This document shows positions 3,506 through 38,805 of a stretch of 64,000 bases of DNA, in pieces (positions within the stretch are counted from its first letter, which is position 1; the number at the start of each line of letters is the position of its first letter). The notes beneath the pieces are model-generated. The model saw only the letters and a list, made by a program, of their open reading frames with translations. It did no database searches and was not told the origin of the DNA. A program made the position numbers and the translations under genes. The stretch lies in the IMG/VR virus record IMGVR_UViG_3300027887_000463, positions 9,371 through 73,370 of that record. One strand, written 5' to 3'. The stretch is from a virus.

Positions 3506-5454
3506 TGAGAACAAAAAATATAGTATGTAAAGTTTATTTAGAAGGCGTTAATGTCTCTTTCAATTCTATTCAAATTGCGGAGCAGGTAGGAGCACCTCCA
3601 AGAGCGGTTGTGAGTTTTCCCGCAGATAGTGCGGCCTTAACTCTTCTTCCTAAAACCGTTATTCATATATACTATGAAGATGATATTGGTATTGACCGGT
3701 TAATTTTTATGGGTGAGTTAGCGGGTAGCGGCATTTCATTTACTCCAGATAAACGAGCTATCAATTTAACTTTTACAGCCTTCTCTCAGAACTGGTATAC
3801 CAATGTTATCCTTCCTATGGACTTGAAGGTTCGGACTATGGCATCTAATGCTCTATATGTTCAAGTAAACCAGGCAGGGGATAAGGCTGAAGCCTCTACT
3901 CTAAAATTTACCGACTTAAAGGGTCTCGGATTTTTAGATGAAATACTATCGAAATTAGAGAATGGTGGAGACACATTGCCCACTATCATACAAAAACTAG
4001 TTAATACATTTGGTGAGGGTTTTGAGGGAGTCTACTGGCAAGCTGTGGCAAAAGCTTTTGGATTTAATAGTATGGTTGCGATTGACGGTGTAGGTAAGCC
4101 GGCTACATGGCCGATTCGAAAGATACAAGAACTGCTAATTACTGTAGCCGTTATGCAACATATCAAGGGATTAGCCCAGGGCGTTTCTGCGGGTACAGAT
4201 ATACATACATTATTTTCAACAATACTGGAATCTTGTGGCTTTTGTTATTCAGAAGTTGCGGCACCCACAGATTTAGGAAATACCCGTGCGCATATTCTAG
4301 TAAAACCAAAGACTCATTTCTTCCCGCCTATTAGACATAATGTTGTTATAGATGATGAGATAGTACAGTTGAGTTTTACTAGAGACTTTGATAGAGAGCC
4401 TACACGTTTAGTAGGACAAACAGTTCCATTCTTTCTACCCACCAACGATATAAATACAACTATTGTGAGTGTGGTAGTTCCCAATAATGTTAGATTGGCT
4501 CAAGCATTGGAGGGAGATAAACCACTTAATTCTACAGAAGTTTCGAACGATCAATTTAAAAATCTAAAAATGTTTGGCCTCTCAAGAGAAGAACAATGTC
4601 GTGGTGTTGTTTTAAGCGAACATCAAGATACTTCTTTTATTGAAAATTCTTACTTAATAGCTCTGATGAAAGATGCGGGGGAGAACAGTGATTATGATTC
4701 TCTCAGCGATGAGAAACGAAAAGAAGTCAACGGTAAATTTGGAGATTATGTTACCGGTGGCGGACAGATGAATGAGTCCGAGACTTACCACATGAATATC
4801 GCCACAACAATGTATTATGATAAACGACATCAGGCAAGAACCATACAAGTGAATTCGCCTTATAGTCCATATAGAATGGTAGATTTTCCTGGAGTTATTA
4901 TAAGTAAATACTTCCCCTCTAATGTTCCCGGTATAGTGGGTAATCTTGATTCCGTGTCCTCGGTTATTTCAGCTGATGGAGAGGCTTCGCAGACTCTAGT
5001 TTATTCTCATTGTAGATTTGTCGATGCCAATGTTTCGGGCACATCTGATTTCTATGGTTTCCTAGATGATGATATGGGTAATCCCGTTCCGTGGTATGCT
5101 GAATATGTTACCCAGGGAAACATTAACTCCTTCTATGAACAATTCACTGGACAAAAGAATTCGGCTGTTATTGCACAAGGGGGAAAGGCTGCGACAGCTG
5201 TTTATAGAGCAGTTCAAGATATAAAGGCTGAAGTTAATAAACCAGAGAACCAAAGAAATCGTGCAGAGTTTATACGAAGAAAAACTAGTCGTCCTTTAGT
5301 CACAAGACCTATGATTCAAAAATTATTTCCTAACACAAGTGTAAGAAAACTAGCTTCCGAAAAGAATAGCCCGGTCACAAGTATAACGCCGGCTCCTTAT
5401 CTAGAAGAACGTAGGAAAAGAGTATATGCTGTATTTAAAGTTAAACAGGGATAA
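3505..5454 (+). CDS. Hypothetical structural-module protein (649 aa)
   Basis: Uninterrupted ORF; ATGA overlap with previous gene; no recognisable motif. Confidence 0.5.
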   Translation: MRTKNIVCKVYLEGVNVSFNSIQIAEQVGAPPRAVVSFPADSAALTLLPKTVIHIYYEDDIGIDRLIFMGELAGSGISFTPDKRAINLTFTAFSQNWYTNVILPMDLKVRTMASNALYVQVNQAGDKAEASTLKFTDLKGLGFLDEILSKLENGGDTLPTIIQKLVNTFGEGFEGVYWQAVAKAFGFNSMVAIDGVGKPATWPIRKIQELLITVAVMQHIKGLAQGVSAGTDIHTLFSTILESCGFCYSEVAAPTDLGNTRAHILVKPKTHFFPPIRHNVVIDDEIVQLSFTRDFDREPTRLVGQTVPFFLPTNDINTTIVSVVVPNNVRLAQALEGDKPLNSTEVSNDQFKNLKMFGLSREEQCRGVVLSEHQDTSFIENSYLIALMKDAGENSDYDSLSDEKRKEVNGKFGDYVTGGGQMNESETYHMNIATTMYYDKRHQARTIQVNSPYSPYRMVDFPGVIISKYFPSNVPGIVGNLDSVSSVISADGEASQTLVYSHCRFVDANVSGTSDFYGFLDDDMGNPVPWYAEYVTQGNINSFYEQFTGQKNSAVIAQGGKAATAVYRAVQDIKAEVNKPENQRNRAEFIRRKTSRPLVTRPMIQKLFPNTSVRKLASEKNSPVTSITPAPYLEERRKRVYAVFKVKQG

Positions 5455-5457
5455 GAA

Positions 5458-6432
5458 ATGCCAAACACATCGATTAATGTATCAACCAACCCAATAGCTA
5501 CGGCATACTCGCCAGCATTGGCTGCTAAAGATTTACATAGGGTAGTAAATAATTCCGCCTTGATGGGATCCTATATACCAGACAATCTAGCTTTAGCAAA
5601 GCAGTATTTCCCCACAGTAGATTCGTTAGGGCTTGGAACTCTCTTGAACTTAGATAAGGGAACCATCTTTCCATTCAAAGATAACTCTCTGGCTATCACC
5701 GATATTGAGGTTCCAACTACTATCCTTGTGCTATCCAAAGGTTCTGGACAAATACAGCTACAAACAAATCGATTTATTCTTCAATCCATTTCTAAACCTA
5801 GCCAGGAAAGATTCCAGATCATAGAAACCTTTGGAGATCCGGCAGTGTATTTCTATGGGGATAGGACTAAGGTATATACCCTGCAGGGTTTACTGGTGGA
5901 TGCTGAAGATCCGATGCAAATAGATAACACCGGGACGGGTACTCCTGAACAACAAAGGGCAAAGGGAAAGTATTACTGGGCAACAGCCTTTCAAGATCTG
6001 TATGAGAATCATTTACGCGGCACAATTCTAACACAACGAGGCCAAATTGCCGCCATCTATGTAAACAATTGGTTTATAAAGGGGTATCCCGTTCAGTTAG
6101 TTATTAACAAAGAGTCGGCAAATACTCCCCAATTAGCCTCATTCCAAATGACTTGGGTTATAGAAAAAGAAACTCTTCTGTCAGCTACAAACGCTGAATG
6201 GTTATATCGAAATAATACCCTTAAAGGTGAGGCTGCCCAGGCACTGAATGGTTACTTAGATGCTCTTGTAAAGTATGATGGGGCTTATTCAGCGTGGCAA
6301 AAAGAAAGTAAAGGAGTTCCAGATGTTACTCCGCTTAGCCAGGAAAAAGATCGAGCCGCCGCAGCAGTTAAGGATGCTCTGAAAACTCTAGAAGCTGCAA
6401 TAGTAAAGGAAGCTTTGATAAATAAAAAGTAA
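5458..6432 (+). CDS. Hypothetical structural-module protein (324 aa)
   Basis: ORF tightly packed in the structural operon. Confidence 0.5.
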   Translation: MPNTSINVSTNPIATAYSPALAAKDLHRVVNNSALMGSYIPDNLALAKQYFPTVDSLGLGTLLNLDKGTIFPFKDNSLAITDIEVPTTILVLSKGSGQIQLQTNRFILQSISKPSQERFQIIETFGDPAVYFYGDRTKVYTLQGLLVDAEDPMQIDNTGTGTPEQQRAKGKYYWATAFQDLYENHLRGTILTQRGQIAAIYVNNWFIKGYPVQLVINKESANTPQLASFQMTWVIEKETLLSATNAEWLYRNNTLKGEAAQALNGYLDALVKYDGAYSAWQKESKGVPDVTPLSQEKDRAAAAVKDALKTLEAAIVKEALINKK

Positions 6433-6434
6433 TG

Positions 6435-6463
6435 TTGATTTTCGTGTATAATCTACGTATAAT
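6435..6463 (+). promoter_or_regulatory. Sigma-70-type promoter TTGATT-N17-TATAAT; -10 ends 5 nt before the ATG of the sigma-factor gene (leaderless transcript predicted)
   Basis: TTGATT 6435-6440, 17-nt spacer, TATAAT 6458-6463; ATG at 6469 with no Shine-Dalgarno; a second TATAAT at 6447-6452. Confidence 0.55.
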
Positions 6464-6468
6464 AGACT

Positions 6469-7182
6469 ATGACTGACAAACAAGAAGAACTGAATCTGTG
6501 GAAGAAGTGGAGAAAAACGGGGGATCCTAGCTATATGAATTCCCTAATCAACTCATTAAACCCCTATCTACAGTCCCATGTAAATAAGTTTTCGGCGGTA
6601 CCAATCCCACGTACCGCTTTAGAGAGTCAAGCAAAGCTATTGGCCTTGAAAGCCCTACAGACATATGATCCAAAGAAGGGTACTCAAATCAATACGCATC
6701 TTGGACATGAACTAAAGCACTTAAATAGATACGTGATTGAGTATCAGAATGTCGGTAAGATACCAGAGAATCGTGGCATAGCTATATCTAAATTTCAAAA
6801 CATTAAGTCAAATTTGACGGAAGATCTCAGTCGAGAACCTACCGTTATAGAACTGGCAGATGCCTTGCAATGGTCCCCTGCCGAAGTCGAGCGGATGCAA
6901 AATGAACTAAGAAGTGATATACTTATCACTCAAGGAAAAGAAGAAGCCTTTTTTGATACCACATACAATCCTTCCGATCGAGACAGGGATATAGTTGAGT
7001 TTGTCTATTATCAGTCCTCCCCTGAAGAAAAGAAAGTCCTAGAATATACATTTGGGATGGGAGGAAATCCCAAATTATCGACTGGAGAAATCGCTATGCG
7101 ATTAAATAAAACTCCAGCCGAAATAGGTAGCATGCGTAAAAGATTAGCGTTAACAATAAAAGACGCGGCAAGTAATTACTAA
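6469..7182 (+). CDS. Phage-encoded sigma-70-family (ECF/sigma-28-like) RNA polymerase sigma factor
   Basis: Region-2-like segment (SQAKLLALKALQTYDPKKGTQINTHL) and C-terminal region-4.2-like HTH (LSTGEIAMRLNKTPAEIGSMRKRLALTIKD); 237 aa. Confidence 0.6.
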   Translation: MTDKQEELNLWKKWRKTGDPSYMNSLINSLNPYLQSHVNKFSAVPIPRTALESQAKLLALKALQTYDPKKGTQINTHLGHELKHLNRYVIEYQNVGKIPENRGIAISKFQNIKSNLTEDLSREPTVIELADALQWSPAEVERMQNELRSDILITQGKEEAFFDTTYNPSDRDRDIVEFVYYQSSPEEKKVLEYTFGMGGNPKLSTGEIAMRLNKTPAEIGSMRKRLALTIKDAASNY

Positions 7183-8993
7183 TGGATCCCTGTAGCATAA
7201 CAAAGAAAGCCCTCGATGCCAAAGCAGCATTGGGCATGGATTTAAGTAACCTTCAACAAAAATTTGATTTGTTAGCAAAGCAGGCTAATAAGCAAATGGA
7301 TTTGTTAGGGATACCTATTCTTAACCAACTCATGAGTAATTTCTCCCAGGTCGTAAACTCAACTCTGGCAGGAGTAGTGGGTCAAATGACAAAGCAGTTG
7401 GCTATGTCCATTAATGAGGGGCTCGATCTAGTGGCCGGCGTGCTTGCTACATTAACAATGATAGCTTCTGCAGGTACGCAAGTACAATTGCTGTTTATAT
7501 CGCAATTACGAAGAGAGCTTACGGTACGTATAATGATGTACAGATTGATGCTATATCATTATAGAAATATTCTTAGGGTATTGAAACTCTTACAGGCGCC
7601 ACGTTCTATATCATATAAAAAACTTTTAGCCGCCCTATCATATGTAAGAAAAGCTGAGGCGTTGTTTGAAAAAGCCGTAATTGCAGAGGCTACAAAGGAA
7701 GGGCTTCCGGCAAGATATAGTTATAAATCTATAAAAGGAGCGTTTCAGAATATAGATTCTGCAACTAAATTATTAACAGCTGATGCTAGTGTTGGTGGTA
7801 AAGAATTGGGATATACCCTTTCTGTTGCAATAACTGGAAGAAAGATTCCAAAGAAACGTTGGGAATATCTAGGACAAACTTTAGCAAAAGACTTATTATT
7901 CAAATCTATTGCCCAATCGTTGTCTTATATTGAATATTTGACGTGGAATTATATGCGAATAGCATCCTTAATCCCTATTCCCTTTGAAGCGGTAGATGCA
8001 ATATTTCAACCAAACAACTATACCCAACAATTTTTAACAGCAAACAATACCACCGCTCCTGGAGTTCAAACATTTAACCAGACAGATGAGGATGCTGCGT
8101 TAGAACGTTTTAGAAATGCTCTTATAAAAGAAGAAAATGAAACACTAGTAAAGACGGCTTCGGATGTTGTAGCATCCTTAGATTTATTGAAGGGGATAAT
8201 ACCGACTAATATAATTATCAATAGCTTAGTAGACACCATCATTAACTATCCAACATTTAATTCAGAATTAAAGGTGGCAACGGCAACACTCATTACATCT
8301 ATATTACCGCTTAAAGAGATAACAACAAATGTTCGTACAGGTATGGAGGATTCGTTAGCGAAGCAGGACAGCGAATTAGTATTAGCTGCCAAAGAAGGTA
8401 TCTGGACCACACAATTAAATTCAATTTTAATTCTTAAGGATGGTATTCTTCCTGCCTTAGAGGGGCAAGCCCGATTAGATCAGGATGCCTATAATTTAGA
8501 AACCTTTGTTAAATATCTAGAAGCAAACCAAGGAATATTTGTAATTGCGGATGCCGTACCAAAATTTATTGCTCAGAGCTTAGAAATTTTACGGGCACCG
8601 TTCAGTTCACGTAGTTTAGAAGAATCAGTTGTTCTGGTAACTTTTATCAACAGACAGTTGGAAAAAGCTGTGCAGGTGGATAGGGCGGTATTAGCAAAAA
8701 TGACTGGAATATCCGAGCCATTATCTCAGTTTACAGAACTCTTAAAAATGGCGTCGGAATTACCACCGCCGATGTCGACTGTAGCAAATGCTTTGAGAAC
8801 TGGACAGGCTCAGCAGGTATTAGGATTTATTACGGCACTTTCTCTTGGAACAATTGATACAATAAAAGATCTCTTCAACCCCAATTGCCCAGAGGTAAAA
8901 GTTAAAGAAGAAAAAGAGTTGTCGCTGTTTGACCAAAAACAAAAAGAAATTGATTCCTTTAATGGAATACCGGTAAGTAACTTATTTGGATAA
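7182..8993 (+). CDS. Hypothetical baseplate/tail protein (603 aa)
   Basis: ORF; ATGG overlap with sigma gene stop; immediately upstream of gp25-like gene. Confidence 0.45.
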   Translation: MDPCSITKKALDAKAALGMDLSNLQQKFDLLAKQANKQMDLLGIPILNQLMSNFSQVVNSTLAGVVGQMTKQLAMSINEGLDLVAGVLATLTMIASAGTQVQLLFISQLRRELTVRIMMYRLMLYHYRNILRVLKLLQAPRSISYKKLLAALSYVRKAEALFEKAVIAEATKEGLPARYSYKSIKGAFQNIDSATKLLTADASVGGKELGYTLSVAITGRKIPKKRWEYLGQTLAKDLLFKSIAQSLSYIEYLTWNYMRIASLIPIPFEAVDAIFQPNNYTQQFLTANNTTAPGVQTFNQTDEDAALERFRNALIKEENETLVKTASDVVASLDLLKGIIPTNIIINSLVDTIINYPTFNSELKVATATLITSILPLKEITTNVRTGMEDSLAKQDSELVLAAKEGIWTTQLNSILILKDGILPALEGQARLDQDAYNLETFVKYLEANQGIFVIADAVPKFIAQSLEILRAPFSSRSLEESVVLVTFINRQLEKAVQVDRAVLAKMTGISEPLSQFTELLKMASELPPPMSTVANALRTGQAQQVLGFITALSLGTIDTIKDLFNPNCPEVKVKEEKELSLFDQKQKEIDSFNGIPVSNLFG

Positions 8994-9437
8994 ATGACTA
9001 TGAGATCATTACAAGTATATCAGCCTAGCTCAGAGACAGGCTTATTGGAGATGAAGTTTCCTTCATCAATCCCTTCTGAAGTCAGTGGGGTTCAAACTCT
9101 GTTACAGAACATTGCCTTATTCCTAAAGACCACCCCTGGATCTGATTCTTTTGATCCTGAACGTGGTACTATATTGGGCGATCAGGCTGCGATGGCTAAA
9201 TCGTTTACCAATATGGATCAGGTTCGGGTATCGGTATCCGATGCAGTTGACCGTACACAATTATACATACTTACACAGCAACAAAAGCAGCGGGAAGCTG
9301 GACAATATATAGGCCCGGATGCCACACTTACAAAGCTGGAAGTCAACAATATTTATCAAGGAGACGATCCTACTTCCATTTTTGTGGAAATTTTAGTATA
9401 TACAGAGGGTAACAAACAATACTTCCTAACGGTATAA
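8994..9437 (+). CDS. Baseplate wedge protein, gp25/GPW-like
   Basis: 147 aa; pattern LQNIALFLKTTPGSDSFDPERGTIL resembles the GPW_gp25 core [IL]xQxIxxxLxTxxGERxxxPxFG. Confidence 0.5.
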   Translation: MTMRSLQVYQPSSETGLLEMKFPSSIPSEVSGVQTLLQNIALFLKTTPGSDSFDPERGTILGDQAAMAKSFTNMDQVRVSVSDAVDRTQLYILTQQQKQREAGQYIGPDATLTKLEVNNIYQGDDPTSIFVEILVYTEGNKQYFLTV

Positions 9438-9440
9438 AAC

Positions 9441-12404
9441 ATGACTATAAAAGAATATATAATTGATAGATTGCTCGAGTTTGACCCCACACTGGACACC
9501 AGTGATAACTCGGCATTAGTGGACTTACTAGTTAATCCTGGATCGGCTATGCTCGATCCTGTCATTGCACAACTAAACTTTCTATTAACTAATTTAGGTT
9601 TAGCTAGTCCAGAGACTATAGATGAATCTGAATTCGATTCGATTGCAGCTAACTTTCTAAAATCTAGAAAGCAAGGAGCTAAAGCTGTTGGGGTCGTAGA
9701 ACTTTTTTACAACAATCCTATCAATTTAGATATACCACAAGGAACTACCTTCACAAGTTCGACGGGAGTAGTGTTTGAAACTACACAAGCTATCCATATA
9801 CCTCTATCCAGCATGGCAGGTAACACATGGAATTTTCCTCGTTATTCGACTGGACCTATTCCGGTATCTGCTCAAGAGTTTGGAGTGATAGGTTCCATAC
9901 CTCCTAATGATATAAAGAGTACAAATCTCGTTCCCGCGCCTGCTCTTGTTACAAACCCATCAGCCTTTAGTGGAGGGGCAGATAAGGAAACCAATACAGA
10001 CTTTGCTGCACGCCTAATTGATGAGACTCTTACAGCAGCTCTAGGAAGCTCAGCGAGTATCAAAGCTAATTTAAGCCCTGCCTATCCTACAATCGAATCT
10101 GTAAAAACACGGGGAATGAATGATGTTGAGATGCTCAGGGACTTAGTATATTCGGGCATTCAAGTTTATAGTAACTATTATAACGTAGATTTCTACGGAA
10201 AAATTTCAGGGCTTAATGAACCACCATTCCCGCAAAGCATAGCCTATTGGAACGTGTTCTATGATGATCCAAATACATCAGGACTTATTCCAGATCTTCC
10301 TATCGTCACTGAGTTTACAGATCAATTTACCACCGGCCAATACGGGGGTATCTATGATCTTAACGATGCACTTAAAACAACCGTACAAACCACAATAGTT
10401 TTAGAAGATGACTTCCAGGCTCCTACGCTAGATCCGGCATGGATTCTATCGGATTCGGTTACTGGGCTGGGTATATTAAAAGATGCTAATGAATTTTTAC
10501 TAACGACCGTAAGCGGTACACAAATGCTAAGGCTGGGCAATAGATTATCACCAGATGACGCAGACGCCCAGGCATTGGTATCCATCTCTCAAGCGCAACT
10601 CTATAATATATTAAATATGTTAAAGAGCTTCAATCGTTTTGGTAAGTGGTTATGGAGAAGCAGTATATTTGATTTACAAATTAGACAGTTCCAAGCTTAT
10701 AATGACTTGATAGATTTTATTCAAGCAGATGATGATAAAGATAATAACATGTTAAGTCCGGAGGAACGTCAGGTTTGGAATATTATACGAAGTTTATCTG
10801 ATGCAGCACTTCTGGAAAAGACACATAATTTCTATCCGCTTGCTACAAGAACACTGGCTAAGCATGCTGGAGTAACTATAACAGGGAGATTTCAAACAGA
10901 CGACACTTCAACGGATGGACGTCTTTCATATGTTACCGTTCTTCGTGATCCGGACTCAATAGATCCAACTAATGGTTATGGATTTGCCTGGATGAAGAAT
11001 GATGCTAGTAATAGTATCTTTAATGTGTATCTTGTAGATAATAGTACTCTATCTAATGATCTGTTTGTAAGTACGACCACCATAGTATTACCACAAGGAG
11101 AAAACCAATTTAAAGCTGCGGCTAAGGTTGATATAAAAGCAGATAAACTCTACAGATTTAAACTGGTTATTGGCGATGATTATTCCATGTCTCTAAAGAT
11201 ATGGTTGAATGGCTCAGCCGAACCCGGTATTCCAACTCTCAGTACAGGAGCCCCGCAAAACGTTACAGCCGATGGATCTCATATCGGATTTGGTGTAATG
11301 GGAACACAAAACGGACAATGGTTCTATGATGATCTTCTGGTGGAGAACAATGCTGGGGTTCATACCGCGCTTCTGTATAGACTGAAAGCGGATCCGGCGG
11401 AGTTTCCAAATGGATCTCTAGCACGAGTTAATCATTATGGTTATGCTTACGACGGAACTACCTATGGCCTATCCGCCTTTATCAAACACTTCAATGGTTC
11501 TGTTTGGGAATGGGTTGAAATAGGTACCAATACAAGTACCAATGTTAGTGATCGAGAAGTAACCAGACTCGCATACGATTTTACTATGAATACAGATTAT
11601 CGGGATACTGATAACTTTATAGATGTATTAATCACTTCTACCGAAGCACAAACCACCGTAACTGAGGCTACATCGTACTATGTAAATTTAGAAACAGGTA
11701 TACCATCAGGAGTACATACAGGGGGATGTGCAGATATCTACATTAATGATCCAGGCTCAATCTTAGTGGCAGAGCAAACACTTAATAATGTGACTGGGAA
11801 TATTTTACTAGATACATCTAATGGCTTTATGGGACCTCTACATACTATCGTAGATGTTCAGACTGCGTTGATCGGGGATTCACTGACCGAGAATACAGAT
11901 TGGACATTAATAACGACGAATGCCGCCACCGCCTATTCGGTTCAAGAATATCCTTATCTAGCCTTTAGCCCTGATTTAGCTAACACAAAGGTAAAAATTA
12001 TTTATCGGTATTATGCATATGGGCAGGATGTACAGAATAGAGTATCCTCAGACCAATACAGATATTCAGGAGCAAGTAATTTGTCTAAGATAATGCCCCC
12101 ATGTGTGGTACGTATTAATAACCTTCGTTATAGAGGCAACCTCTCCGTAGGAGATGCGCAGCTAGCAATCGCAAATTATGTGAATACCCAACCAGAAAAG
12201 GTAACTCGTAACGAAATTATAAATGCATTATACACAGCAGGAGTTTCTTTTGTAGACCTGACTAATGTCGATATCGAAATCATACTACATAACTATAAAA
12301 GAGAAACACAAGATCCGGAACAGCTGGTTAGTGAATATATTAAACCAGATCTGTCCGCATTCTTTACCGACTCTTATGAAATGACCGGAGTTATAAAACT
12401 ATAA
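9441..12404 (+). CDS. Baseplate J-like protein (gpJ/gp6 family), 987 aa
   Basis: Follows the gp25-like gene as in P2 W-J-I-H order; FSGGADKETNTDFAARLI resembles the Baseplate_J GG-D-E...R motif. Confidence 0.45.
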   Translation: MTIKEYIIDRLLEFDPTLDTSDNSALVDLLVNPGSAMLDPVIAQLNFLLTNLGLASPETIDESEFDSIAANFLKSRKQGAKAVGVVELFYNNPINLDIPQGTTFTSSTGVVFETTQAIHIPLSSMAGNTWNFPRYSTGPIPVSAQEFGVIGSIPPNDIKSTNLVPAPALVTNPSAFSGGADKETNTDFAARLIDETLTAALGSSASIKANLSPAYPTIESVKTRGMNDVEMLRDLVYSGIQVYSNYYNVDFYGKISGLNEPPFPQSIAYWNVFYDDPNTSGLIPDLPIVTEFTDQFTTGQYGGIYDLNDALKTTVQTTIVLEDDFQAPTLDPAWILSDSVTGLGILKDANEFLLTTVSGTQMLRLGNRLSPDDADAQALVSISQAQLYNILNMLKSFNRFGKWLWRSSIFDLQIRQFQAYNDLIDFIQADDDKDNNMLSPEERQVWNIIRSLSDAALLEKTHNFYPLATRTLAKHAGVTITGRFQTDDTSTDGRLSYVTVLRDPDSIDPTNGYGFAWMKNDASNSIFNVYLVDNSTLSNDLFVSTTTIVLPQGENQFKAAAKVDIKADKLYRFKLVIGDDYSMSLKIWLNGSAEPGIPTLSTGAPQNVTADGSHIGFGVMGTQNGQWFYDDLLVENNAGVHTALLYRLKADPAEFPNGSLARVNHYGYAYDGTTYGLSAFIKHFNGSVWEWVEIGTNTSTNVSDREVTRLAYDFTMNTDYRDTDNFIDVLITSTEAQTTVTEATSYYVNLETGIPSGVHTGGCADIYINDPGSILVAEQTLNNVTGNILLDTSNGFMGPLHTIVDVQTALIGDSLTENTDWTLITTNAATAYSVQEYPYLAFSPDLANTKVKIIYRYYAYGQDVQNRVSSDQYRYSGASNLSKIMPPCVVRINNLRYRGNLSVGDAQLAIANYVNTQPEKVTRNEIINALYTAGVSFVDLTNVDIEIILHNYKRETQDPEQLVSEYIKPDLSAFFTDSYEMTGVIKL

Positions 12405-17565: not shown

Positions 17566-20500
17566 ATGGCTTCTTTCTTATTAAAGAGAACAACAGATAG
17601 CATAGCCTACGGAACCAAAGTTAAAAACGGTAGGTATGTAGTAGGTGCTTATGTTGTCTTATACAACTCCACAACTTCTACCCTTATCGGTCAAACACAG
17701 ACCGATAAATATGGCCGTTGGTACATCATCATTAATACCTCCACACCCGACCCAGGAATCTACCAAGTACGTTTCTACGGTTCCGGATTAATTTCCGCCG
17801 AACCACCTGATGGAGATTGGGAATTTGTTGAGATCGTTGATACCACAGCCGCACAACAGGGCGCTGTTACCTATCGCGGAATCTGGAAAGTTGGAACTCA
17901 GTATTACGGGAGTGCTATATACCATGAAGCTGTTAAAGCTCCTGATGGAAAATATTATTATTCTATAGCTGACAGTCTTGGGGTTCAACCGCCGAACGCT
18001 GGATCCTGGACATATTTCTCCGATCAATTTGCCTCCGTTGCAACCGACCTTCTTTTAGCACAAGATGTTGCTGTAGGAAGAACTATAACTCTTGGTACTG
18101 CTCTTGAAGATGGTGGTGCTGGTGGTATTCTACAAACTGCAGGAGTAACCGGGCTACGTTCTGGTACCGGGGGATTCTACGTTAAAGGTTCTGGACTCAG
18201 TGAACTACGTATAGGTACAGTTGATGGGGCCAACTTAGTAAGTGGCCTTCTATGGGATGGTCCTAATAATATCTTTGAAATTCGTTCCAAGAATTTCTCT
18301 ATAGATCAATATGGAAATGTTACAATCACTGGGCTAATTACTGCCACCTCTGGTCTCATAGGCGGATGGACGATTGGACCAACCTCACTCTATTCAAATA
18401 GTGGTGCTGGTGTTGGTATGTCTTCAGGCGATTGGCCCTTCTATGCCGGAGATACAAATCCCGCTAATGCTGAGTTTAGAGTAAGTAATGCTGGAGCTCT
18501 TTATGCTTCAAATGCTACTATTAGCGGTTCGATTTCTGCAAGTTCTGGGGTTATAGGCGGATGGATTATCGGACCAACATATTTATATTCAACTAATGTT
18601 GGCCTGGCCCCGTATGATTATCCCGTTTTTGCTGGAGCTGATTATAGTTCCCGTGCCTCTGCTCCTTTTAGAGTTAATACAGCTGGCTCTATATACAGCA
18701 TCTCCGGTATTATCGGAGGATGGGCTCTTGATACCAACACACTAACTGCACTTACTAACGGACAGATTCGTACAGGATCTTCTGGAACATATATAACTCT
18801 TGATAGAAATTATCTTCAAAGCTCTACTTATATATCCGGTAATCAAGGATTCAGAATAACATCTTCTACTGCAGATGCTGAGTTTAATAACATTGTAGCT
18901 CGTGGAACTTTCCGAGCATCCGTATTTGCCATTGATGAAGTAAATGCAACTGGCGGAACCATGATGGTTACCGACGCTGCTGAGGTTGTTAGTGGTCTTA
19001 CCACTCCCAACGATCTTAGTACAACTTGGTATTTATGTGCTAGAAAAACCTACACAAACCAAGCAGCCATGTTTGGTGGTCCTGGTACGGCTACGGGCTA
19101 TGTTATAAGACTTAAGTTTGCCGATCAGGCGGTTAACGGAGTTACAGATATTTGGGCTACACGCACCTCAGCTGCAGCTGTAGATGGAGGAACATATTGG
19201 AGATTTACCGTTCAGAATGCTACAGTTAATTCCCAAAATAAGAATATTTATAAAGGTACTGCTGCAGTTGGTTATGGAACTTCTACATCTAAAAAAATAA
19301 TCCTAACCAGTGATTTGGGTGGATCCGCTGTAACTCCTTATATAGATATGTTCACTACAGGATCATCGCCCTGGAATGGTGTAACCACAAATCTTCGTCT
19401 TGGAAATCTTACCGGAATTACCGATCCATCTTATGGAACACTTCCTTCTGGAACTTATGGCCTCTATGCTGATAATGCTTATCTTAAGGGAGCTATTGTA
19501 GCTGCTTCTGGTCTTATTGGTGGATGGAATATTGGAAGTAATTATCTCTACTCTACTGCTGGTAACGGTGAAGGTTTAGCTCCTCTTGATTATCCTTTCT
19601 TTGCTGGAGCACAATATGCATCACGAGCATCGGCTCCCTTTAGAGTTAATACCACAGGAGCTATATATAGTGTATCTGGAATTATTGGTGGATGGAATCT
19701 TACACCTTCACAAATATTTGCACGTTCTCTAGTTGGTAGTGGTATGGTCAGTATGTATGGATTCCAGGCAAGCTCCGATTGGTGGTATGGGGGTTTTGAA
19801 TTAAAAGATTGGGCTACTTGGAGAACCGGAAATAAAGCACGTTACCACGGTTTCTTTGGAATGTCGGATAATGGATCGCCTCCAACTAAACCCGAGATTG
19901 TATTCTATGTAGGAGCTACTACAAATACTTCTCCCCGGTCTGACGCAGCTTTTTATATTGATATGGATGGAGGCATGAGGTTTGGTGGAACTCAAACCCA
20001 GCCTGGAATGACTTGGGATCCGAACACGAATGAATTGACTCTCAGTGGAATAATCACAGCAACTCAAGGAAAGATCGGCGGTTGGAATATAGGAGCGACC
20101 TCTCTTTATGCAGGAACCGGATCGTCTACTGTTGGATTAGCATCCTCGGGAGGCTATGCTATATATGCGGGCTCTGCTACTCCAAGTGCAGCTCCTTTTA
20201 GAGTTGATCCTGCTGGAAATGTTTGGGCAACTGCAGGATTCATTGGAGGGGATGACTCCTCCACAGGATGGGAAATTACTACCGGATCAATAGCAACAAC
20301 ATTAAATGGTGGTGAAATGTTTTTATCCACCGTAAATTTAGAACGCGCATATGCATCAATTCTAGGAATCGATAATTATTTTGCTGGTCTTTGGACTTAT
20401 TATACTGGACCAATCATACCCGGATCTCATGAAGCATATAGTTCGGTAAATGCTTCTACTACATCCAATGTGCCTGTTATATTTGCTGGAGCTGATACTA

Positions 20501-23500
20501 AATATCCTGTTATCGGTACTTCTTCTATTCCTTTTTATGTTGATGCCTACGGAAATTTCTATACAAAAATCACAGAGTATTTACAAACAGCTTATGAAAC
20601 AACCTCTATTTCCGGATTAACCTTAAGCCCAACTACACCAAAGAATATGCGAATCGAGTCGCTGATACCTCGTTCTTTCAATGAGAGTGGTTCAGGAGGA
20701 GGTTTAGTTTATGAGAGCTCGACTGGAGAATATAAATCGTTTACTTATACTAGTGCAAGTGTTACTTGGGGTGGTTTTGACTTTATTTATACATTATTAA
20801 ATTGTACTAGCGATGTTGGAAATATTGTTGTTCCAGTCGGTGGACGCATATTCGCACGCCGTTCCGTTACAACTATTAACGATGGTGGAGCGTTTTCTCT
20901 TTCAACCTATGGCCCAAGAGGTGTTTATATAGGAGGTACTAATGGTAGCAGTATTCCATTATTAAGAGTTGAACAATACGATAGCGATGCGGGAACTGAT
21001 TATCAAAGCCGTGCTGTTGAAATATATCATTACTCAAAATTCCATGGAAGTACACAACCACACTATGCACAATGGATTATTGGCGGAGGTTATGGTTCAT
21101 ATAGAGGATTATCGGTTTATGCGGATTCCACGGGATGGACTCCTACTGCAAGCGGGCAAGATACTATCCGTGGAGTGGAAGCAGATACATATGCCGAAAC
21201 AACGGCTGGATCAAATTATGCGTTGGCAGGAGTGGCTCAGGGCGGAATAGTTGCAGTGGGTATATATGCATCCGCCACTGGTGGTGGGTCTTTAGGTTCG
21301 TACGCCGGTATTTTTGCTAATGCTCCTACTCGCTTTGATAAACAATTACAAATAGCTGAGATTTCTTCCCCTACAACACCTGGAACGGGTTATGGATATC
21401 TTTATGCTAAATCCGATAATCTTATTTACTGGAAGAGCGATGCCGGAATTGAATACGATCTTACTGGAGCATCCTCTGCTTCTGGAATCACTTCCATTAA
21501 CACCCTTACCTCAACCGCTCAAACACTTGTTGTAGGAACAGCGGGTACCGGATTTAATATAGTTTCCACGGGTAGTACCCACACATTTAATCTTCCATTT
21601 GCAGGCATATCCACTAGCGGAATTGTGTCGACTGGAGTTCAAACCTTTAGCGGGCAAAAAACATTTAACAATAATGTTCATATAAATGGAAATTTAGTTT
21701 TTGATGGTACCTACACAATTTATCCTCAGGATGCCACTGTTGCAAATGATTTAACAATAATGGGTGGGGTGGGCTCCGGCTCCGGTGCGAGTGGTGGAAT
21801 ACTTTATTTAATGGGTGGTGAGGGTAATGGTATAGGCGACACCGGTATTGTGTCGATGGCCTATAACGGAACTAGTCTCGGAGGCGTTGTTATTGGTAGT
21901 AATGTGCTTACTGCCGGATATTTACTTGACGTATATGGTGATATACGTGGCTATAATATAAATGCAATAACAGCACTTAAACTTAATGGCGCTGATATTA
22001 ATACAGCAGGAACTCTTTCCAATGTTGCATATCTGAATCAAGCAAATCGGTTTACTGCGCGACAAGGCATATTCTCCGTAGCCCCACAACTTGTAGTTTC
22101 TGGATTGACTAACAGTGAGATTGAGGTACGTTCTACTTCTGGCGGCCCGGCGTCTATAAGCTTTTATAATGGAACAGATTTTTGGCAATTTGGTCATGCC
22201 ACTACGGTTGGATATTATCTATTTCAATATAATTCATCGACCAAGATGTCAATTAACTCGGCCGGACAAATGACTATAAACCGGATAGGTACTCCCACAC
22301 CTTTAGCAACTCTTGATGTTAACGGAAATGCCTACATAGCCACAGGACTTGATGTTCCCGAGGGTCCGGTTCACATAGGCGCCGCTGTAGGAGCTTTCAC
22401 CGCATCAGGAATAACCTTCGACAAGGCTAATCAATCACAGCTAGTTAATGTGTGGGGTATCGATGCTGCCAACTCGACAACATCAAATCCTGGATATTGG
22501 GGAATTTATTCGGTAGATGCTAATGGAAACGCCTCTCAATCATATGATATTCGCGCAACACATGACATTGCAATTAAATATGATACCGATAATACACATT
22601 CAGGAACATTTAAAGTATGGCGAGGAAATACTCTTGGTGGAGGAACCGGAGTATTTACACTTGATGCTACAGGACAAGCAACTTTAGTAAGTGGATTAAC
22701 CTTAGGTACATATTTACAACTTCCAGAAATCTCTGCTCCAACAACCCCATCCTCTGGATTCGGATTGCTCTATGCCAAATCAGATAGCAAGCTCTGGTTT
22801 AAGAGTGATACGGGGCAAGAATATAATCTTACTGCATCTGGGGTAACAGGACCAGCAGGTTCTAATTCATATGTTCAGTATAACGATAATGGTATTTTTG
22901 GAGGAACATCTAATTTCGAATGGGTAAACGCTAGTAACTCGTTGCTCATCACGGGTTCAATGCAAATTAGTAAGGCTACCTCAGGAACAATTTGGGCATT
23001 GAATAGCTTTACAAATGGTTTAGGACGAGTGTTGGAATTAGAAAATTCGTATGCAACAGTGGCGATAGAAGGTGGGCCGCGACAATATTTTCGAGCTACT
23101 CTTACAGGCGAAGGAGGAAACGAAAGCTTTGATCTTTCGGCTATCGCAGGAATTGTTGAAAATGGAGATGCTTTTGATACATATCAAGGTGCTCTGGCCT
23201 TCTATTATTTTGGAGGAGAGGGGACTGCTGTAACTGAAGGAGCACGTCTTGGATCTGATGGTATGTTTAATATGTGGAAAAATGCCAGTGTCTCCGGACT
23301 CATACGAATAAAAGAAATAAATGCTCCAACTACCCCTCCATCAACATATGGTTATTTATATGCAGGAACAGATAGCAAGTTATACTGGGCAAATGATCTT
23401 GGTACTACATACGATCTTACTGCCTCCGGAACTAGTGGTGGAGGTATTTCCTCTGTCGGTTCTCCCGCGGCAACCCAAGTAGCATATTGGGCTTCATCAA

Positions 23501-26500
23501 CAGCCCTAAGCGGTCATATAGGCTTTACTTATCTTCCCGGAACAAGTGCTCTGTCCGTAAGCGGTCTTATTGCTCTTGGATCCATTCCATCTTCAACAGG
23601 TATTCTGAGAATTCCAAATAACAATTCCATAGGATGGAGAAATGCTGCCAATTCAGGTGATTATACACTAGCTCTAAACAGTTCTAATTTATTTGCCTTC
23701 TCAAATAGTTTAACTGTTACGGGGGGTACTACAATTTCTACTACCCACACAGTTACTCAATCTACAATTACCGGCAATACTCCCGCATTCGATGGTTCGG
23801 CAACATGGAATAACTCCGCCGTGACTTTCCGGGGTATTGAGTTTGCAATAACAACGGGAGGTGCGGGGTATCAAACTACTTCTACACTTCTTCGGTTAAG
23901 AACAGATTCAGGCGATCGATTCTATGTCCAAGCCAATGGAGCAACACTTATTGGTTTGGCCGGGTCAGATTTAACAATTAACAATTCAACCGTCTATGCT
24001 ACTGGAGCAACCGTTTATACTGGCGATAACCTGCATGTGGGTGTATCAGATGGTCAAGCGGGGATAACTTTTCATGGAGCAAGCTCTGCAAATAAATGGG
24101 GTTTTTATAAACTTACCAGTACCTATGACTTTGTACTTTATAATTATACAAGTACTAGAAACGTCTTAAGATTTGCCGAAGCAGCAGGAAATCTAACTAC
24201 CCTATACGCCAACATGGTGATTGAGGGTACAACCGGATTCAACGCTAATGGCGAAACTGCACAGCTAAGTATTGGCGATACTAACCATTATGCTAAAGCA
24301 GTGTATGGTTCTGGACTTGCTTATGTAACCGCTACAAATGAAGACTTTACATACTTTGCTGGATCCACCTTCATATATCGTTTAGGTGGAACAGGTCTTC
24401 TCACTATTAAAGAATTAACAGCTCCTACAACAACAGCTTTGTCAGGATATGGATATCTCTATGCCAATACTGCTGATGGAAAATTGTATTGGAAAGATGA
24501 TGCTGGTACAGTATATGATCTAACTCTGGGAAGTTCGCTTCCTGCTGACAATATAACAGGATTAGGCGCTTCGAATCGAGTAGCTTATTTTACTGGAAAT
24601 TATACCATTTCTGGAAATAATAATTTCACTTACAACGGAAGTACCATTTCTGTAAGCGGTCTACTCGATTATAATTATACTACGGCTGATACTCATTGGA
24701 ATTTGGGAACACGTGCTCTTACTCTTCATGGTACGGGCGGGGCCGATGTTGGTTATACACAAATCGCAATGTATGGCGATTCAACTGGTGAGCGTCCAGG
24801 ATTCGTTATGGGCAGATTGGGGCCTGAATTTTACATTAATGTTGTTAACACAACTAACAGAGTCTTTTCAAACTCCTTCGCTGGACTAACTACGATGATC
24901 AGTGTTAGCGGCCTGGCCCTTGGTACACAGTCTGGTAATGCGGACCTAATGGTATTTGGACAAAAAGTAGGTATCAATAGAACTCCAACCGCGTATGCAT
25001 TGGAAGTAGATGGGGATATTAATCTAGAGGCGGGCCATATACTGCGCTATGCGGGAACAGATGCATTTGCTGGATATACTCCTACTTCTAGAACACTAAC
25101 GCTTACTCCTGGAGCGGGAATTGGCATTGCTCCTGGAGGAGCACAAGATCTTTCAGCTAATCGATCTTGGACAGTAACAGTATCTGGTACAATCGGGGCG
25201 ACTGCAACATGGAATGGTCAGGTTATATCTTCAACATATCTTGATGCAAATATAGCTTATAAAAATGCTAGCGCTAATATAACAGCCGATTGGATTTTTG
25301 ATGGCTCAACTTATCAGGGTATAACTGTTGGAGGGGAATCAGAAAACGGTGTTGTTAGATTTAAAACCGTAGGATCATATGGAACACTAACGTCTCTTGA
25401 CCTAGCTTCAGATTATACCTGGTATCTTCCAAATGCAAGCGGAGTTATTGCTCTCACTAAGGATCTTAACGCTTATTCTCCAGCAACTAGAACACTTACA
25501 TTAGTTCCGGGAGGAGGGGTTGGAATAACTCCTGGAGGAGCACAAGATCTTTCAGCTAATCGATCTTGGACCTTAACTGCGTCTGGAATAACTGTACTTC
25601 AAGGAGGTACGGGGGCCACAACACTAACTGGATGGGTCTATGGCAACGGCAGTAGTGCCATGACCGCCACAACAACCCCAACATTTGGGGCGGGAAGTAC
25701 TTGGAATGGTAACGCTATCTCGAGTACATATCTTGATGCTAATATAGCTTATAAGAATGCTGCCAATACATTCTCTCTGTCCCAAACAATTTCTGCAGAT
25801 CTTATTTTCTCCGGAGCCAATCGTACTATTTACTCGCTCGATGCTGCTACGGCAAGTGCGCTATATATAAGAGCAGGCTCATCATCAACTTCAGGCGGTG
25901 CTGGTGCTAATCTCTTTGTATGCGGCGGCCCAGGTAATGGGGCTGGAACTGATGGTAATGTTCTTCTTGCTTGGGATGGAGGCAGTATAGGTGCCGTAGC
26001 CATTGGACAAGGAACTGTTACAGCCACTTATTTACTGGACGTAGCTGGTTCTATCCGATCAAGTTCAAGTATTAATGCCGTAACATCATTCTTATTAAAT
26101 GGCGCTAGTCTTAATACGGGTGGAACTTTATCCAATGTTGCTTATAAAGATGCCACCAACCTCTTTACAGGAGCAATGAATGGCTTTTCTCAGACAGTAT
26201 CTGTTAGCGGACTATTAGATTATAACTATACAGCAGCAGACACTCGATGGAATCTTGGAACACGTGCTGTAGTTATAATAGGTACAGGTGGTTCAGATGT
26301 TGGTTATAATCAATTACAATTATTAGGAGGGTCAACTGGAGAGCGTCCGGGCCTTTCTATAGGACGTGCCGTAGGAGAATTAGGTATTTCTATAGCTAAT
26401 CAAACTAATAGAATCTTCTTAAACAGTGCTGCAGGTATTGCAACATTCTTTGATACTACCGGTATTCTCCTTGGTACGCAATCTGGAAATGCTGATCTGG

Positions 26501-30422: not shown

Positions 30423-30451
30423 TTGATACTTTTATATTTTTTTAGTATAAT
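30423..30451 (+). promoter_or_regulatory. Near-consensus sigma-70 promoter TTGATA-N17-TATAAT
   Basis: TTGATA 30423-30428, 17-nt AT-rich spacer, TATAAT 30446-30451, about 30 nt upstream of ATG 30481. Confidence 0.6.
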
Positions 30452-30480
30452 AAGATACCAATTAACCAATACAGGTAACC

Positions 30481-35990: not shown

Positions 35991-36018
35991 AGGGCCTGAT
36001 TTCAGGCCCTTTCTTTTT
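35991..36018. terminator. Bidirectional rho-independent terminator between convergent genes
   Basis: AAAAAA-GGGCCTGA-TT-TCAGGCCC-TTTCTTTTT. Confidence 0.75.
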
Positions 36019-36394
36019 AGGAGATTGGTTTTTTATTATTTGGCAGATAATGAATAACCGTTGAGAGATATAGAACTATAGGAATTACATACCAGAACCA
36101 CATTAATGAGGATGTGTATATTATAAACAATAAAGCATAGCTCGCTATTCGAGCGCTAATAAGATGTAATAAACTAGTTAGACCCACCTCAGGCAACATT
36201 GTATATTGTAGAAGAAGCTGTCCAACAAAAGAATCATATTCAAATTCCTTCTCACCAATCAATTTTTTAAATAGTACGATAGCTATAACTAGTTCCGTTA
36301 CTATGCCAGTAATACATGCGGTTAGAAGATCCAGACGTATTACATAAGCTACAAGAGCTAATATGCCACTATATGGAATCCGTATCTTAAGCAT
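36017..36394 (-). CDS. Multi-pass membrane protein (125 aa)
   Basis: Three to four hydrophobic helices. Confidence 0.45.
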   Translation of the reverse strand: MLKIRIPYSGILALVAYVIRLDLLTACITGIVTELVIAIVLFKKLIGEKEFEYDSFVGQLLLQYTMLPEVGLTSLLHLISARIASYALLFIIYTSSLMWFWYVIPIVLYLSTVIHYLPNNKKPIS

Positions 36395-37685
36395 ACTCCT
36401 TCAGCCATCCAACCATTTTCTCGCGCTTATCTTCCCATAGAAAGTTTTTATAGACACGATCAATGGCCGCCTCATTGGCGACTCGTTTTTTACCGTTGGC
36501 CACCCACTTTTGATATTCTTTTTCGAGTGCTTCGACAAATAGTCTGGTGTCTACTAGTGGTCGCATATGACCATTATCCATAGCGATATTAATGTGGGCA
36601 CGATTAGGAATAATGTGTCCTGTATCTCCAAGCATTTCCGGAATAGCAGAATTCTTGGGAGCTATAGATGTAGTTCCTACTGCAGCTGACTCAATGAGAG
36701 AAAGGCCTACTCCTTCTCCAAGCGTTGTACTTAGATTCACATCAGCGATATTATAAAGAATATTGAGCTCTTCATCTGTAATAGGATTAGCATAAACATT
36801 GCCAGCAAAAGCAGCAATGACCTTATTAACATCAGAATTCTCAAACCCGGCATTCATCATATGTGCTTGTAGGATATTTGCTCTGCCAGGACCCATCATA
36901 CGCTCTTGTGTATTACAGTGAAGATATAACATAACATCTTCGTGCCCCGGATGTTCCTCAATAGCATCGGAGGTTGGACAATCATTAAGATCACAATGAG
37001 GTCTACTTGCTAGATAGGTATTTCCGCACTTACATACTTTATATCCTTTGGAGAATAGGGCCCATGCCCGTAAAGCACCTGGTAGGTGTTTACGTGGTTG
37101 GAATCTATTGTTAGAGATTGCTAGGAATTTTTCATCCCATCCCTTATCTTTCCTTAATTGATATGTAGCTGCGGCAGGAAGCGGGAAAAATACATCTGTA
37201 TTTACTCCATGATATAAATGATCAATATGAACTTTTTCTAGTTCCGGAATAGCTTCTTTAATAACACGAACGCCCCATTCAGTGTAAGTAATTAGCTTAT
37301 TGAGTTGGAGTAACGTATTGCCCCAAGTTCTAGATACCGGGGTACCGTCGATAGGAAAATAAGCTACGATAGGAACCTTATCGTTCCACTTTTTGATAGT
37401 AGGAAGAATAAAATCGATGTTGAAAACATCTTGGAAGAGAAGGATAACATCTGGATTCCAGTCAGGTAGTACTCGATGCATGCGGTCGAGTCCTAGAAGA
37501 TCTTGGAGATCAACAGGATAGATAAAATACTTCGATGTATCATATCTATGGATACCGTAATAGTTAACACCAAGGATGGCTACTTCGAAGTCTTTGTGGA
37601 GATCTCTAAAAAGGTTTTCGGCAACTATACCGAAGCCCGTTTTTACAGTTGGTGAGTCGCACCAGATCAGTAATCTTTTTTTCAC
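36387..37685 (-). CDS. Glycosyltransferase family 1 (GT-B) with internal Cys4 zinc-ribbon insertion
   Basis: GEGVGLSLIESAAVGTTSIAPKNSAIPEML matches the GT4 EX7E region; CKCGNTYLASRPHCDLNDCP. Confidence 0.6.
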   Translation of the reverse strand: MKKRLLIWCDSPTVKTGFGIVAENLFRDLHKDFEVAILGVNYYGIHRYDTSKYFIYPVDLQDLLGLDRMHRVLPDWNPDVILLFQDVFNIDFILPTIKKWNDKVPIVAYFPIDGTPVSRTWGNTLLQLNKLITYTEWGVRVIKEAIPELEKVHIDHLYHGVNTDVFFPLPAAATYQLRKDKGWDEKFLAISNNRFQPRKHLPGALRAWALFSKGYKVCKCGNTYLASRPHCDLNDCPTSDAIEEHPGHEDVMLYLHCNTQERMMGPGRANILQAHMMNAGFENSDVNKVIAAFAGNVYANPITDEELNILYNIADVNLSTTLGEGVGLSLIESAAVGTTSIAPKNSAIPEMLGDTGHIIPNRAHINIAMDNGHMRPLVDTRLFVEALEKEYQKWVANGKKRVANEAAIDRVYKNFLWEDKREKMVGWLKEYA

Positions 37686-37853: not shown

Positions 37854-37855
37854 AT

Positions 37856-38780: not shown

Positions 38781-38805
38781 ATAAAAATATTGGTTAAAGA
38801 AACAA

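Follow-up and report, generated by a model that had tools for sequence, protein, structure and literature searches.

A divergent sigma-70-family factor in the baseplate module of a phage that encodes its own multisubunit-type RNA polymerase

A sigma factor gene among the baseplate genes

The stretch of viral DNA analysed here, 64,000 nt long (IMG/VR record IMGVR_UViG_3300027887_000463, positions 9,371 to 73,370) and called the window below, covers part of a phage genome. It carries a gene for a sigma-70-family factor (6469-7182) placed in a baseplate and tail module, and, on the same strand, a gene for a fused beta-beta′ RNA polymerase (RNAP). These two genes, and the promoters that precede them, are the subject of this work; the positions of all features are collected in Table 1.

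A sequence-only reading of this DNA had assigned open reading frame (ORF) 6469-7182 to the sigma-70 family, and profile and fold comparisons bear this out. The ORF matches Pfam Sigma70_r3 (E 8.8e-8, 32.6 bits for a cut-off of 25.3 bits) and PHROG 351, a sigma-factor family (E 7e-10), and a profile made from 31 homologues aligns, over residues 9-231, with regions 2-4 of RpoS and RpoD in the PDB (E ~1e-9). Its AlphaFold2 (AF2) model (predicted local distance difference test, pLDDT, 83.5) is composed of three helical domains and, in a fold search, retrieves the sigma chains of solved holoenzymes over ~230-280 aligned columns with probability 1.0. Residues 151-168, which correspond to the region 3.2 linker between sigma3 and sigma4, are disordered in this model. 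The Pfam models for Sigma70_r2 and for region 4 do not detect the ORF. In sigma2, the equivalents of the -10-pocket residues F419, E420, R423, T429, R436 and R441 are retained or conservatively replaced, Y430 is changed to His, and W433/W434 to His/Glu. The C-terminal helices align with region 4, and the canonical -35-contacting residues of region 4.2 are not conserved, the TRERIRQ of canonical factors reading TPAEIGS here. With -10 and -35 residues so divergent, the promoter specificity of the factor is not readable from homology. Its best NCBIfam match is FliA/WhiG, at 33.9 bits (about a tenth of the cut-off of 326), the others being lower, and none of the curated subfamily cut-offs (FliA/WhiG, SigB/F/G, RpoS, RpoH, ECF) is reached. 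The ORF encodes a divergent, full-length sigma-70-family protein, group-3-like and outside the curated subfamilies, and thereby adds a new, divergent protein to a known family. A blastn search of positions 5000-9000 against phage records gave no match.

The gene starts at ATG 6469, a start further 5′ being impossible because of the in-frame TAG at 6463-6465; use of the alternative ATG at 6535 would drop the N-terminal residues K4, E7, W11 and W14, which are conserved in the family. Overlapping stop and start codons had been described on both flanks of the gene. The overlap exists on the 3′ side, where the stop codon TAA (7180-7182) shares bases with the next ATG (TAATG), but not on the 5′ side, where a gap of 36 nt (6433-6468) follows the upstream ORF (5458-6432).

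The location inside the baseplate and tail module, also proposed from the sequence, is confirmed by the baseplate PHROG protein and the baseplate J protein encoded downstream and by the upstream homologue of gp6 of Arash, a Salmonella phage (OQ632216) whose complete genome we used to derive the class 2 promoter motif described below. In all the relatives examined, the sigma gene is found just 5′ of baseplate genes. From 6469 to 30187 there is no plus-strand terminator and no gap of more than 10 nt, and the 13 downstream genes are for this reason probably co-transcribed with the sigma gene. The promoter of the sigma gene would then probably also drive the baseplate and fibre genes, through a predicted transcript of ~23.7 kb.

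The RNA polymerase of the phage accompanies the sigma factor

The sequence-only reading had left room for an RNAP of the phage as the partner of the sigma factor, and the window does encode a fused beta-beta′ enzyme. Its Pfam matches are those of a beta subunit (Rpb2_3 and Rpb2_6) followed by those of a beta′ subunit, with Rpb1 domains 2 and 5 above the cut-offs and Rpb1 domains 1 and 4 below them, and among solved structures the protein is closest to bacterial beta′ subunits (E 1e-109). The beta′ clamp-helix segment, which binds sigma2, is present and strongly diverged. The family counts more than 480 relatives among metagenome proteins, and in IMG/VR at least 594 stretches match it. By its beta-beta′ polymerase, the phage belongs to the metagenomic lineage of multimeric-RNAP-encoding Caudovirales (mReC) of Weinheimer and Aylward 2020 (PMC7481178). 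In many relatives the polymerase contains inteins or homing endonucleases, and the gene is split in Arash and in the Vibrio phages. The ORF list gave TTG 46266 as the start of the gene; we rejected it, as this TTG is that of the -35 of a conserved promoter, and the true start is ATG 46314.

The sigma factor has 104 metagenome homologues. Distant homologues (29% identity) are found in Arash and in the Vibrio phages D69, D181 and D148, and these phages also carry the polymerase. Four IMG/VR contigs, matched by name, hold both genes, and at least 11 further sigma-polymerase pairs have an equal longest-contig size. The identities of the two proteins to those of the window (sigma/polymerase) are 84/85, 66/69, 64/61, 57/57, 51/46 and 29/31%: sigma and polymerase co-occur and diverge in parallel. 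Moreover, mass spectrometry of Arash virions detected the sigma factor Gp10 (100% coverage, 467 spectra) along with beta Gp206, which had the highest count (3516 spectra), and beta′ Gp216 (PMC10585845).

We favour, with middling confidence, the reading that the sigma factor is the initiation factor of the phage beta-beta′ polymerase, that it is made with the virion proteins and probably packaged, and that it is probably not a late switch. It could instead be a classical phage sigma factor that acts on the host core only, its co-occurrence with the polymerase merely reflecting a shared genome ancestry. We regard this as improbable. It would agree with the behaviour of all experimentally studied phage sigma factors, which act on the host core, with the lack of any alpha or omega homologue among the window ORFs scanned, and with reviews according to which phage multisubunit RNAPs work without sigma (PMC7824862, PMC13282480). 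However, the co-occurrence is strict, and the stepwise divergence from 85% to 29% spans widely different hosts (Salmonella, Vibrio, and sediment or marine bacteria). Region 2.2 of the sigma factor and the beta′ clamp helices both depart from the bacterial consensus, as the two sides of a private interface would, and the two proteins are detected together in Arash virions.

A promoter against the start codon of the sigma gene

The gap in front of the sigma gene holds a promoter, TTGATT-N17-TATAAT, whose -10 ends 5 nt before the ATG, at the coordinates first reported for it. The start codon opens at the 6th base downstream of the -10. With an anti-Shine-Dalgarno duplex energy of +0.6 kcal/mol, the sigma start ranks 42nd of 45 window genes, about half of which have a recognisable Shine-Dalgarno, and the gene indeed lacks this element, as had been noticed. 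The first 60 nt of the predicted mRNA are less structured than all of 200 shuffled versions (z = +2.1). The leaderless expression put forward in the sequence-only reading fits all of this: the distance from -10 to ATG, the loss of the Shine-Dalgarno and the unstructured 5′ end.

A promoter match at 10 of 12 positions is by itself weak evidence, because such matches are common: a generic consensus scan finds six of them in 20 kb, and its total of sites is 35, versus 55 in shuffled sequence. For the stricter pattern TTGAYW-N16-18-TATAAT, the window has two copies where 0.38 are expected, both in a plus-strand gap directly 5′ of a gene. When one mismatch at most and a 17-nt spacer are required, 4 of the 5 matches are intergenic (intergenic DNA being 5.6% of the window), and these four are all oriented to the adjacent gene.

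We compared 58 distinct upstream regions of sigma genes, which fall into two clear states, some distant relatives having larger gaps or ambiguous starts. In State A, a gap of 28-42 nt holds a -35 (TTGATT, TTGATA, TTGACT or TTGAAT) and a -10 (TATAAT, TATATT or TATACT), separated by a spacer of 16-17 nt whose sequence is unrelated among relatives. It comprises the window, L025 (87% identity), L032 (84%) and six members of a ~50% sub-clade. The -35 is TTGATT, TTGATA or TTGACT in L025, L032, L010, L011, L034, L046 and L053, and TTGAAT in L052. Counted from the -10, the A of the ATG lies at 6, 6, 7, 7, 7, 8, 9, 9 and 14 nt in the nine sequences, that is, at 6-9 nt in 7 of the 8 relatives, which have 5-8 nt between the two elements, and at 14 nt in the last, which has 13. 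L032 also has a -10-like TATAAA at the position of the second TATAAT of the window (Table 1). In State B, the gap measures -4 to +3 nt, and the sigma gene is translationally coupled to the upstream structural gene, without a promoter. This coupled arrangement is the more widespread state, found in more than 20 lineages, among which are a 78% relative, Arash and Vibrio phage D69. The median anti-Shine-Dalgarno energy is +0.5 kcal/mol in State A versus -4.2 kcal/mol in State B (Mann-Whitney p = 7e-4); the Shine-Dalgarno is lost only in the promoter-bearing lineages, State B sequences usually having one.

Eight independent relatives have kept the sigma promoter while its spacer diverged; it is no product of chance but real, patchily distributed and of a geometry that fits a leaderless start. 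We therefore give very little credit to the possibility that the promoter-like stretch is an inert AT-rich spacer and that sigma is translated from a polycistronic late mRNA by re-initiation or S1-dependent loading. The frequency of 10/12 matches in a genome of 40% GC, where the scan gave fewer sites than in shuffled sequence, would suit such a spacer, as would the read-through transcripts that must exist, there being no terminator between the sigma gene and the upstream ORFs. Nevertheless, every gap of 28-42 nt in the relatives holds a correctly spaced -35/-10 pair among otherwise unrelated letters, the best matches are concentrated and correctly oriented in the small intergenic fraction, and the loss of the Shine-Dalgarno is specific to the promoter-bearing lineages.

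In known leaderless genes, such as lambda cI expressed from PRM and many actinobacterial genes, the -10 lies ~6-8 nt 5′ of the AUG, which is the 5′ end of the mRNA. The sigma gene of the window resembles them in having no Shine-Dalgarno and an unstructured 5′ coding region; it differs in its spacing, which at 5 nt is at the short end, and in that its start is predicted from sequence.

Promoter classes in the window and in Arash

The promoter of the sigma gene is one of a class. Class 1 (TTGAYW-N17-TATAMT) fronts four units, namely the sigma gene, the head/portal module, the glycosyltransferase operon and the polymerase. The RNAP-gene promoter is kept in the 85% relative, and the glycosyltransferase promoter in relatives down to ~50%. 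Class 2 is defined by the promoter-like motif GGTATAAG, found in the window at the four minus-strand sites of Table 1. The copy at 46248 belongs to a block fully (100%) conserved in the 85% relative, and at the glycosyltransferase-gene loci of the relatives 9 copies out of 9 are on the sense strand.

In Arash, GGTATAA[GTA] is present in 37 copies, 36 of them on the minus strand, which bears non-structural genes; they lie ~20-35 nt before a Shine-Dalgarno and an ATG and have no -35. In place of the T(-7) that bacterial sigma-70 requires, a G is present in 30 of the 37. The conservation of the motif between phages of different hosts argues for its recognition by a phage-encoded component. The only plus-strand GGTATAAG of Arash is found 4 nt before the ATG of gp9, a small ORF that immediately precedes the sigma gene gp10 and is coupled to it. 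A promoter outside the late class has thus come to abut a start codon close 5′ of the sigma gene in Arash as well, by an independent route. A late motif, CTAAAATA, or (C)TAAAATA, precedes the plus-strand structural genes of Arash, its endolysin gene and both its polymerase genes. A third class, TTGACA-N17-TAnnnT, has 6 copies there, all on the minus strand.

Besides the Gp10-type factor, Arash and the Vibrio phages have a second sigma factor, canonical and gp196-like, which retains the TYAGWW motif; gp196 is absent from the Arash virion list (PMC10585845). The gp196 gene is preceded by TTGACT-N17-TACTAT, and its annotated start is probably ~59 codons too early. Neither the family profile nor a search with Arash gp196 revealed a second sigma factor in the window, and no gp196-like factor was found on the IMG/VR contigs of its sub-clade by a pattern-based, not exhaustive, search.

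In the model built on the sequence-only reading, the host RNAP would transcribe the sigma gene early, and the factor would then redirect the host or phage polymerase to late promoters, in the style of T4 gp55 or SPO1 gp34. The promoter of the sigma gene does fit the bacterial housekeeping consensus, and the changes in region 4.2 and at W433/W434 mean that the factor may not read its own promoter. Arash again offers a parallel, with its sigma gene behind the non-late GGTATAAG and its late genes behind the distinct CTAAAATA. We nevertheless hold this role to be unlikely. A shared non-sigma-70 motif upstream of the late genes had been proposed as a check, and none is enriched: an unbiased k-mer enrichment in oriented upstream regions returned T-tracts, the -10-like GTATAA, terminator stems, AAAGGAG and AACCAATA, and nothing else. 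The tail, head and RNAP units share the promoter class of the sigma gene itself. Furthermore, in the more than 20 lineages with a promoterless, coupled gene, the sigma factor would appear only when late transcription has already begun. A factor required to activate the late genes would not be expected to be coupled inside the late structural operon, as it is in most relatives. Finally, its homologue is detected in Arash virions, and the RNAP genes of Arash stand behind the late motif, which fits packaging better than a late switch.

Discussion

A factor that switches on a temporal class of genes is normally encoded in the preceding class. The coupling of the sigma gene in the late operon of most lineages, its co-occurrence with the polymerase and the detection of both proteins in virions fit a factor produced late and delivered to the next cell. 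In the mechanism that we propose, the sigma factor would pair with the phage polymerase, be made with the virion proteins and be packaged with the polymerase as in Arash, so that a ready holoenzyme would enter the next cell. The most likely targets of this holoenzyme would be the phage-specific GGTATAAG class, and not the sigma-70-like class to which the promoter before its own gene belongs. In the sub-lineage of the window, a 36-bp insert with a sigma-70-consensus promoter would have replaced the ancestral translational coupling. The sigma gene would thereby have become a first, leaderless cistron, with a transcript presumably starting at the A of the ATG, and the insert would provide an added route for the expression of sigma and, probably, of the tail genes 3′ of it.

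Several points weigh against this proposal. The binding of the sigma factor to the phage polymerase, as against the host core, is inferred indirectly, from the co-occurrence, the parallel divergence and the co-detection in Arash virions, and the Arash virion preparation held many metabolic enzymes, its authors allowing for a carry-over of abundant intracellular proteins (PMC10585845). The class 1 promoters could be read by host sigma-70, by the sigma factor of the window or by a second phage sigma factor. The host sigma-70 holoenzyme is the simplest reader of the class 1 consensus, the phage holoenzyme or a second sigma factor being possible ones. Such a second factor may lie outside the window, which is part of the genome, and the second canonical factor of Arash and the Vibrio phages would blur the assignment of sigma factors to motifs. 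Lastly, the -10 lies so close to the ATG (5 nt) that transcription might also begin at G6471, which would destroy the start codon.

A wider proposal, which we advance tentatively, is that the mReC phages run a self-contained sigma-dependent transcription, with a minimal holoenzyme made of a fused or split beta-beta′ polymerase and a private group-3-like sigma factor, apparently without alpha or omega. This machinery would be assembled late, packaged and injected, and would read the extended -10-like (T)GGTATAAG with a G at T(-7).

How does this compare with what is known of phage transcription? The mReC phages were described as tailed-phage contigs from many environments with recognisable beta and beta′ homologues, as here (PMC7481178). 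In that work the polymerase serves as a phylogenetic marker. The words sigma, virion and promoter are absent from its text, and it gives no description of a sigma partner, of where such a gene lies or of classes of promoters (PMC7481178). In phiKZ, the AR9-like jumbo phages, N4 and the crAss-like phages, the polymerase is made late, packaged and injected, and the early genes are read independently of the host; a similar packaging is likely for the phage of the window. However, none of these has a sigma-70-family protein: phiKZ gp68 and AR9 gp226 are unrelated in sequence, and the polymerases of N4 and the crAss-like phages are single polypeptides. In the window, in contrast, a protein with sigma2, sigma3 and sigma4 accompanies a polymerase that is readily aligned with bacterial beta and beta′. 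T4 gp55, SPO1 gp28 and gp33/34 and the sigma factors of T4-like jumbo phages are, like the factor studied here, sigma-family proteins of lytic phages. They are encoded in the temporal class before the one that they activate, by phages without a polymerase, whereas the sigma gene of the window is inside a late structural operon (mostly coupled in relatives) of a phage that does encode one.

The closest system in culture is that of Arash. Its Gp10 is homologous to the sigma factor of the window (29% identity over 97% of the length) and is likewise encoded upstream of baseplate genes in the structural operon. The genome also has a cellular-type beta/beta′ polymerase, GGTATAAG before non-structural genes and an extra promoter against a start codon near sigma. 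It differs in that the polymerase is split, with beta and the N-terminal part of beta′ in Gp206 and the C-terminal part of beta′ in Gp216. Moreover, its sigma gene is coupled to gp9 and its internal promoter is GGTATAAG, not of the -35/-10 type; its late genes carry CTAAAATA, and it has the second sigma factor gp196, of which no counterpart was found in the window.

In the searchable literature, a sigma factor encoded with a cellular-type phage polymerase and placed in the baseplate operon figures only in annotation and proteomics entries (PMC10585845), and two promoter classes, or recurrent promoters against start codons, are not described there. Reviews divide phages into those that have multisubunit RNAPs and lack sigma, and those that encode sigma and lack an RNAP (PMC7824862, PMC13282480, PMC7598289). 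The lineage of the window, abundant in metagenomes (the IMG/VR stretches counted above) and cultured on Salmonella and Vibrio, has both the polymerase and a sigma gene in its virion-gene operon. It cuts across this split between an own multisubunit RNAP without sigma and a sigma factor with a borrowed host polymerase. If the holoenzyme proposed here is real, the lineage would offer a sigma-dependent RNAP of very small size, on a deep branch for which an origin before the bacterial radiation has been proposed, and its sigma factor would be the first of the sigma-70 family dedicated to a viral polymerase. The interface could be tested in Arash, which can be cultured, and the system would be useful for the evolution of sigma-core recognition and as a compact orthogonal transcription system.

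Other features of the window

Table 1. Positions of the features described in the window, in order along the plus strand
Feature	Position	Strand	Basis
Upstream structural gene, homologue of Arash gp6 (found in virions)	5458-6432	+	
36-nt intergenic gap, promoter only	6433-6468	+	
-35 hexamer TTGATT	6435-6440	+	
Second TATAAT within spacer, without usable -35	6447-6452	+	
-10 hexamer TATAAT, 17 nt after -35, 5 nt (agact) before ATG 6469	6458-6463	+	
Sigma-70-family factor, 237 aa, sigma2-sigma3-sigma4 (group-3-like)	6469-7182	+	profile, fold, AF2 model
13 tightly packed genes 3′ of sigma: baseplate protein, baseplate J/wedge, fibre	7182-30187	+	
Baseplate PHROG protein	8994-9437	+	
Baseplate J/wedge	9441-12404	+	
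3241-aa ORF with C-terminal S74 intramolecular chaperone domain	17566-27291	+	
Class 1 TTGATA-N17-TATAAT, 5′ of head/portal module	30423-30451	+	
Class 1 TTGATT-N17-TATACT, 5′ of glycosyltransferase gene/operon	37719-37747	-	
Class 2 GGTATAAG (TGGTATAAG), 5′ of small ORF and gene 37856-38206	38353-38360	-	
Small reverse transcriptase	40479-41363	-	RVT_1
MoxR-VWA pair	42663-45380	-	
Class 2 GGTATAAG (TGGTATAAG), facing minus-strand MoxR/VWA operon	46248-46255	-	
Class 1 TTGACT-N17-TATCAT, 5′ of RNAP gene	46266-46294	+	
Fused beta-beta′ multisubunit-type RNA polymerase, 2015 aa	46314-52361	+	
ClpB-like double AAA+ chaperone	53792-56017	-	
Class 2 GGTATAAG with TATAAG 6 nt before ATG of gene 57223-57711	57718-57725	-	
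Pnkp-like RNA repair protein (kinase, phosphoesterase, T4-type RNA ligase domains)	58055-60223	-	
Translation initiation factor 3 (IF3), TTG start	60223-60690	-	NCBIfam infC, 119.6 bits, above cut-off
Class 2 GGTATAAG (TGGTATAAG), 5′ of gene 62016-62369	62392-62399	-	

Promoters set against start codons are not limited to the sigma gene. The class 2 motif at 57718-57725 shares bases with the stop codon of the gene before it, and the pyrimidine-dimer glycosylase gene that it precedes is a second leaderless-like arrangement in the window; in the relative L023, a TATAAT stands 7 nt ahead of the ATG of the RNAP gene. In E. coli, leaderless mRNAs and non-canonical starts are disfavoured by IF3, and the phage gene for IF3 is noteworthy beside the several leaderless-like genes and GTG starts of the same genome. 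The promoters against starts at sigma, at gene 57223-57711, at Arash gp9 and at the L023 RNAP gene, together with the phage IF3, point to leaderless expression as a deliberate trait of these phages.

The motif (T/C)AACCAATA lies 7-9 nt 5′ of four start codons, two of them GTG, at 30463-30471 (+), 37693-37701 (-), 38788-38796 (-) and 38336-38344 (-). Three of these genes have no Shine-Dalgarno, and the fourth, the small ORF near 38328, has GGAG directly after the motif. The 8-mer is enriched upstream of genes (p ~1e-5) and is kept in the leaders of the relatives' glycosyltransferase genes, 3′ of the promoter. We rejected it as a -10 for the phage sigma factor, since it is downstream of the conserved -35/-10 promoter, in the window and in the orthologous leaders of relatives, and thus inside the 5′ untranslated region. 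It may be a Shine-Dalgarno substitute, a translational enhancer or an operator.

With its baseplate and fibre genes and a match to a portal (head module), the window is that of a large tailed phage. No family match to capsid (PF07068) or terminase (PF03237) was found among the window ORFs scanned, and the terminase probably lies outside the window. No relatives were retrieved for the head-module gene at 30481, and tRNA and Rfam scans of the window found nothing. The 3241-aa ORF is probably a giant tail fibre or spike; four small overlapping ORFs follow 3′ of it.

The reverse transcriptase gene is flanked by two long, non-coding and strongly folded gaps (41364-41709 and 42043-42662, ~-0.4 kcal/mol per nt), and a sigma-70-like promoter, TTGATA-N17-TATATA, points into the second one, of 620 nt. 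This region has no Rfam match, and no template/variable repeat pair of the diversity-generating type was found within 36000-46300. The genes for the Pnkp-like and ClpB-like proteins and the MoxR-VWA pair all belong to minus-strand units that carry GGTATAAG. Finally, terminator hairpins of the form GGGGGAGA...TCTCCCCC followed by TTTTTTTTAC are repeated at 37828-37857, 38806-38824, 52362-52404 and 62400-62443, and the TTTTTTTTAC tail, also conserved behind hairpins in relatives, is often found directly 5′ of the next promoter.

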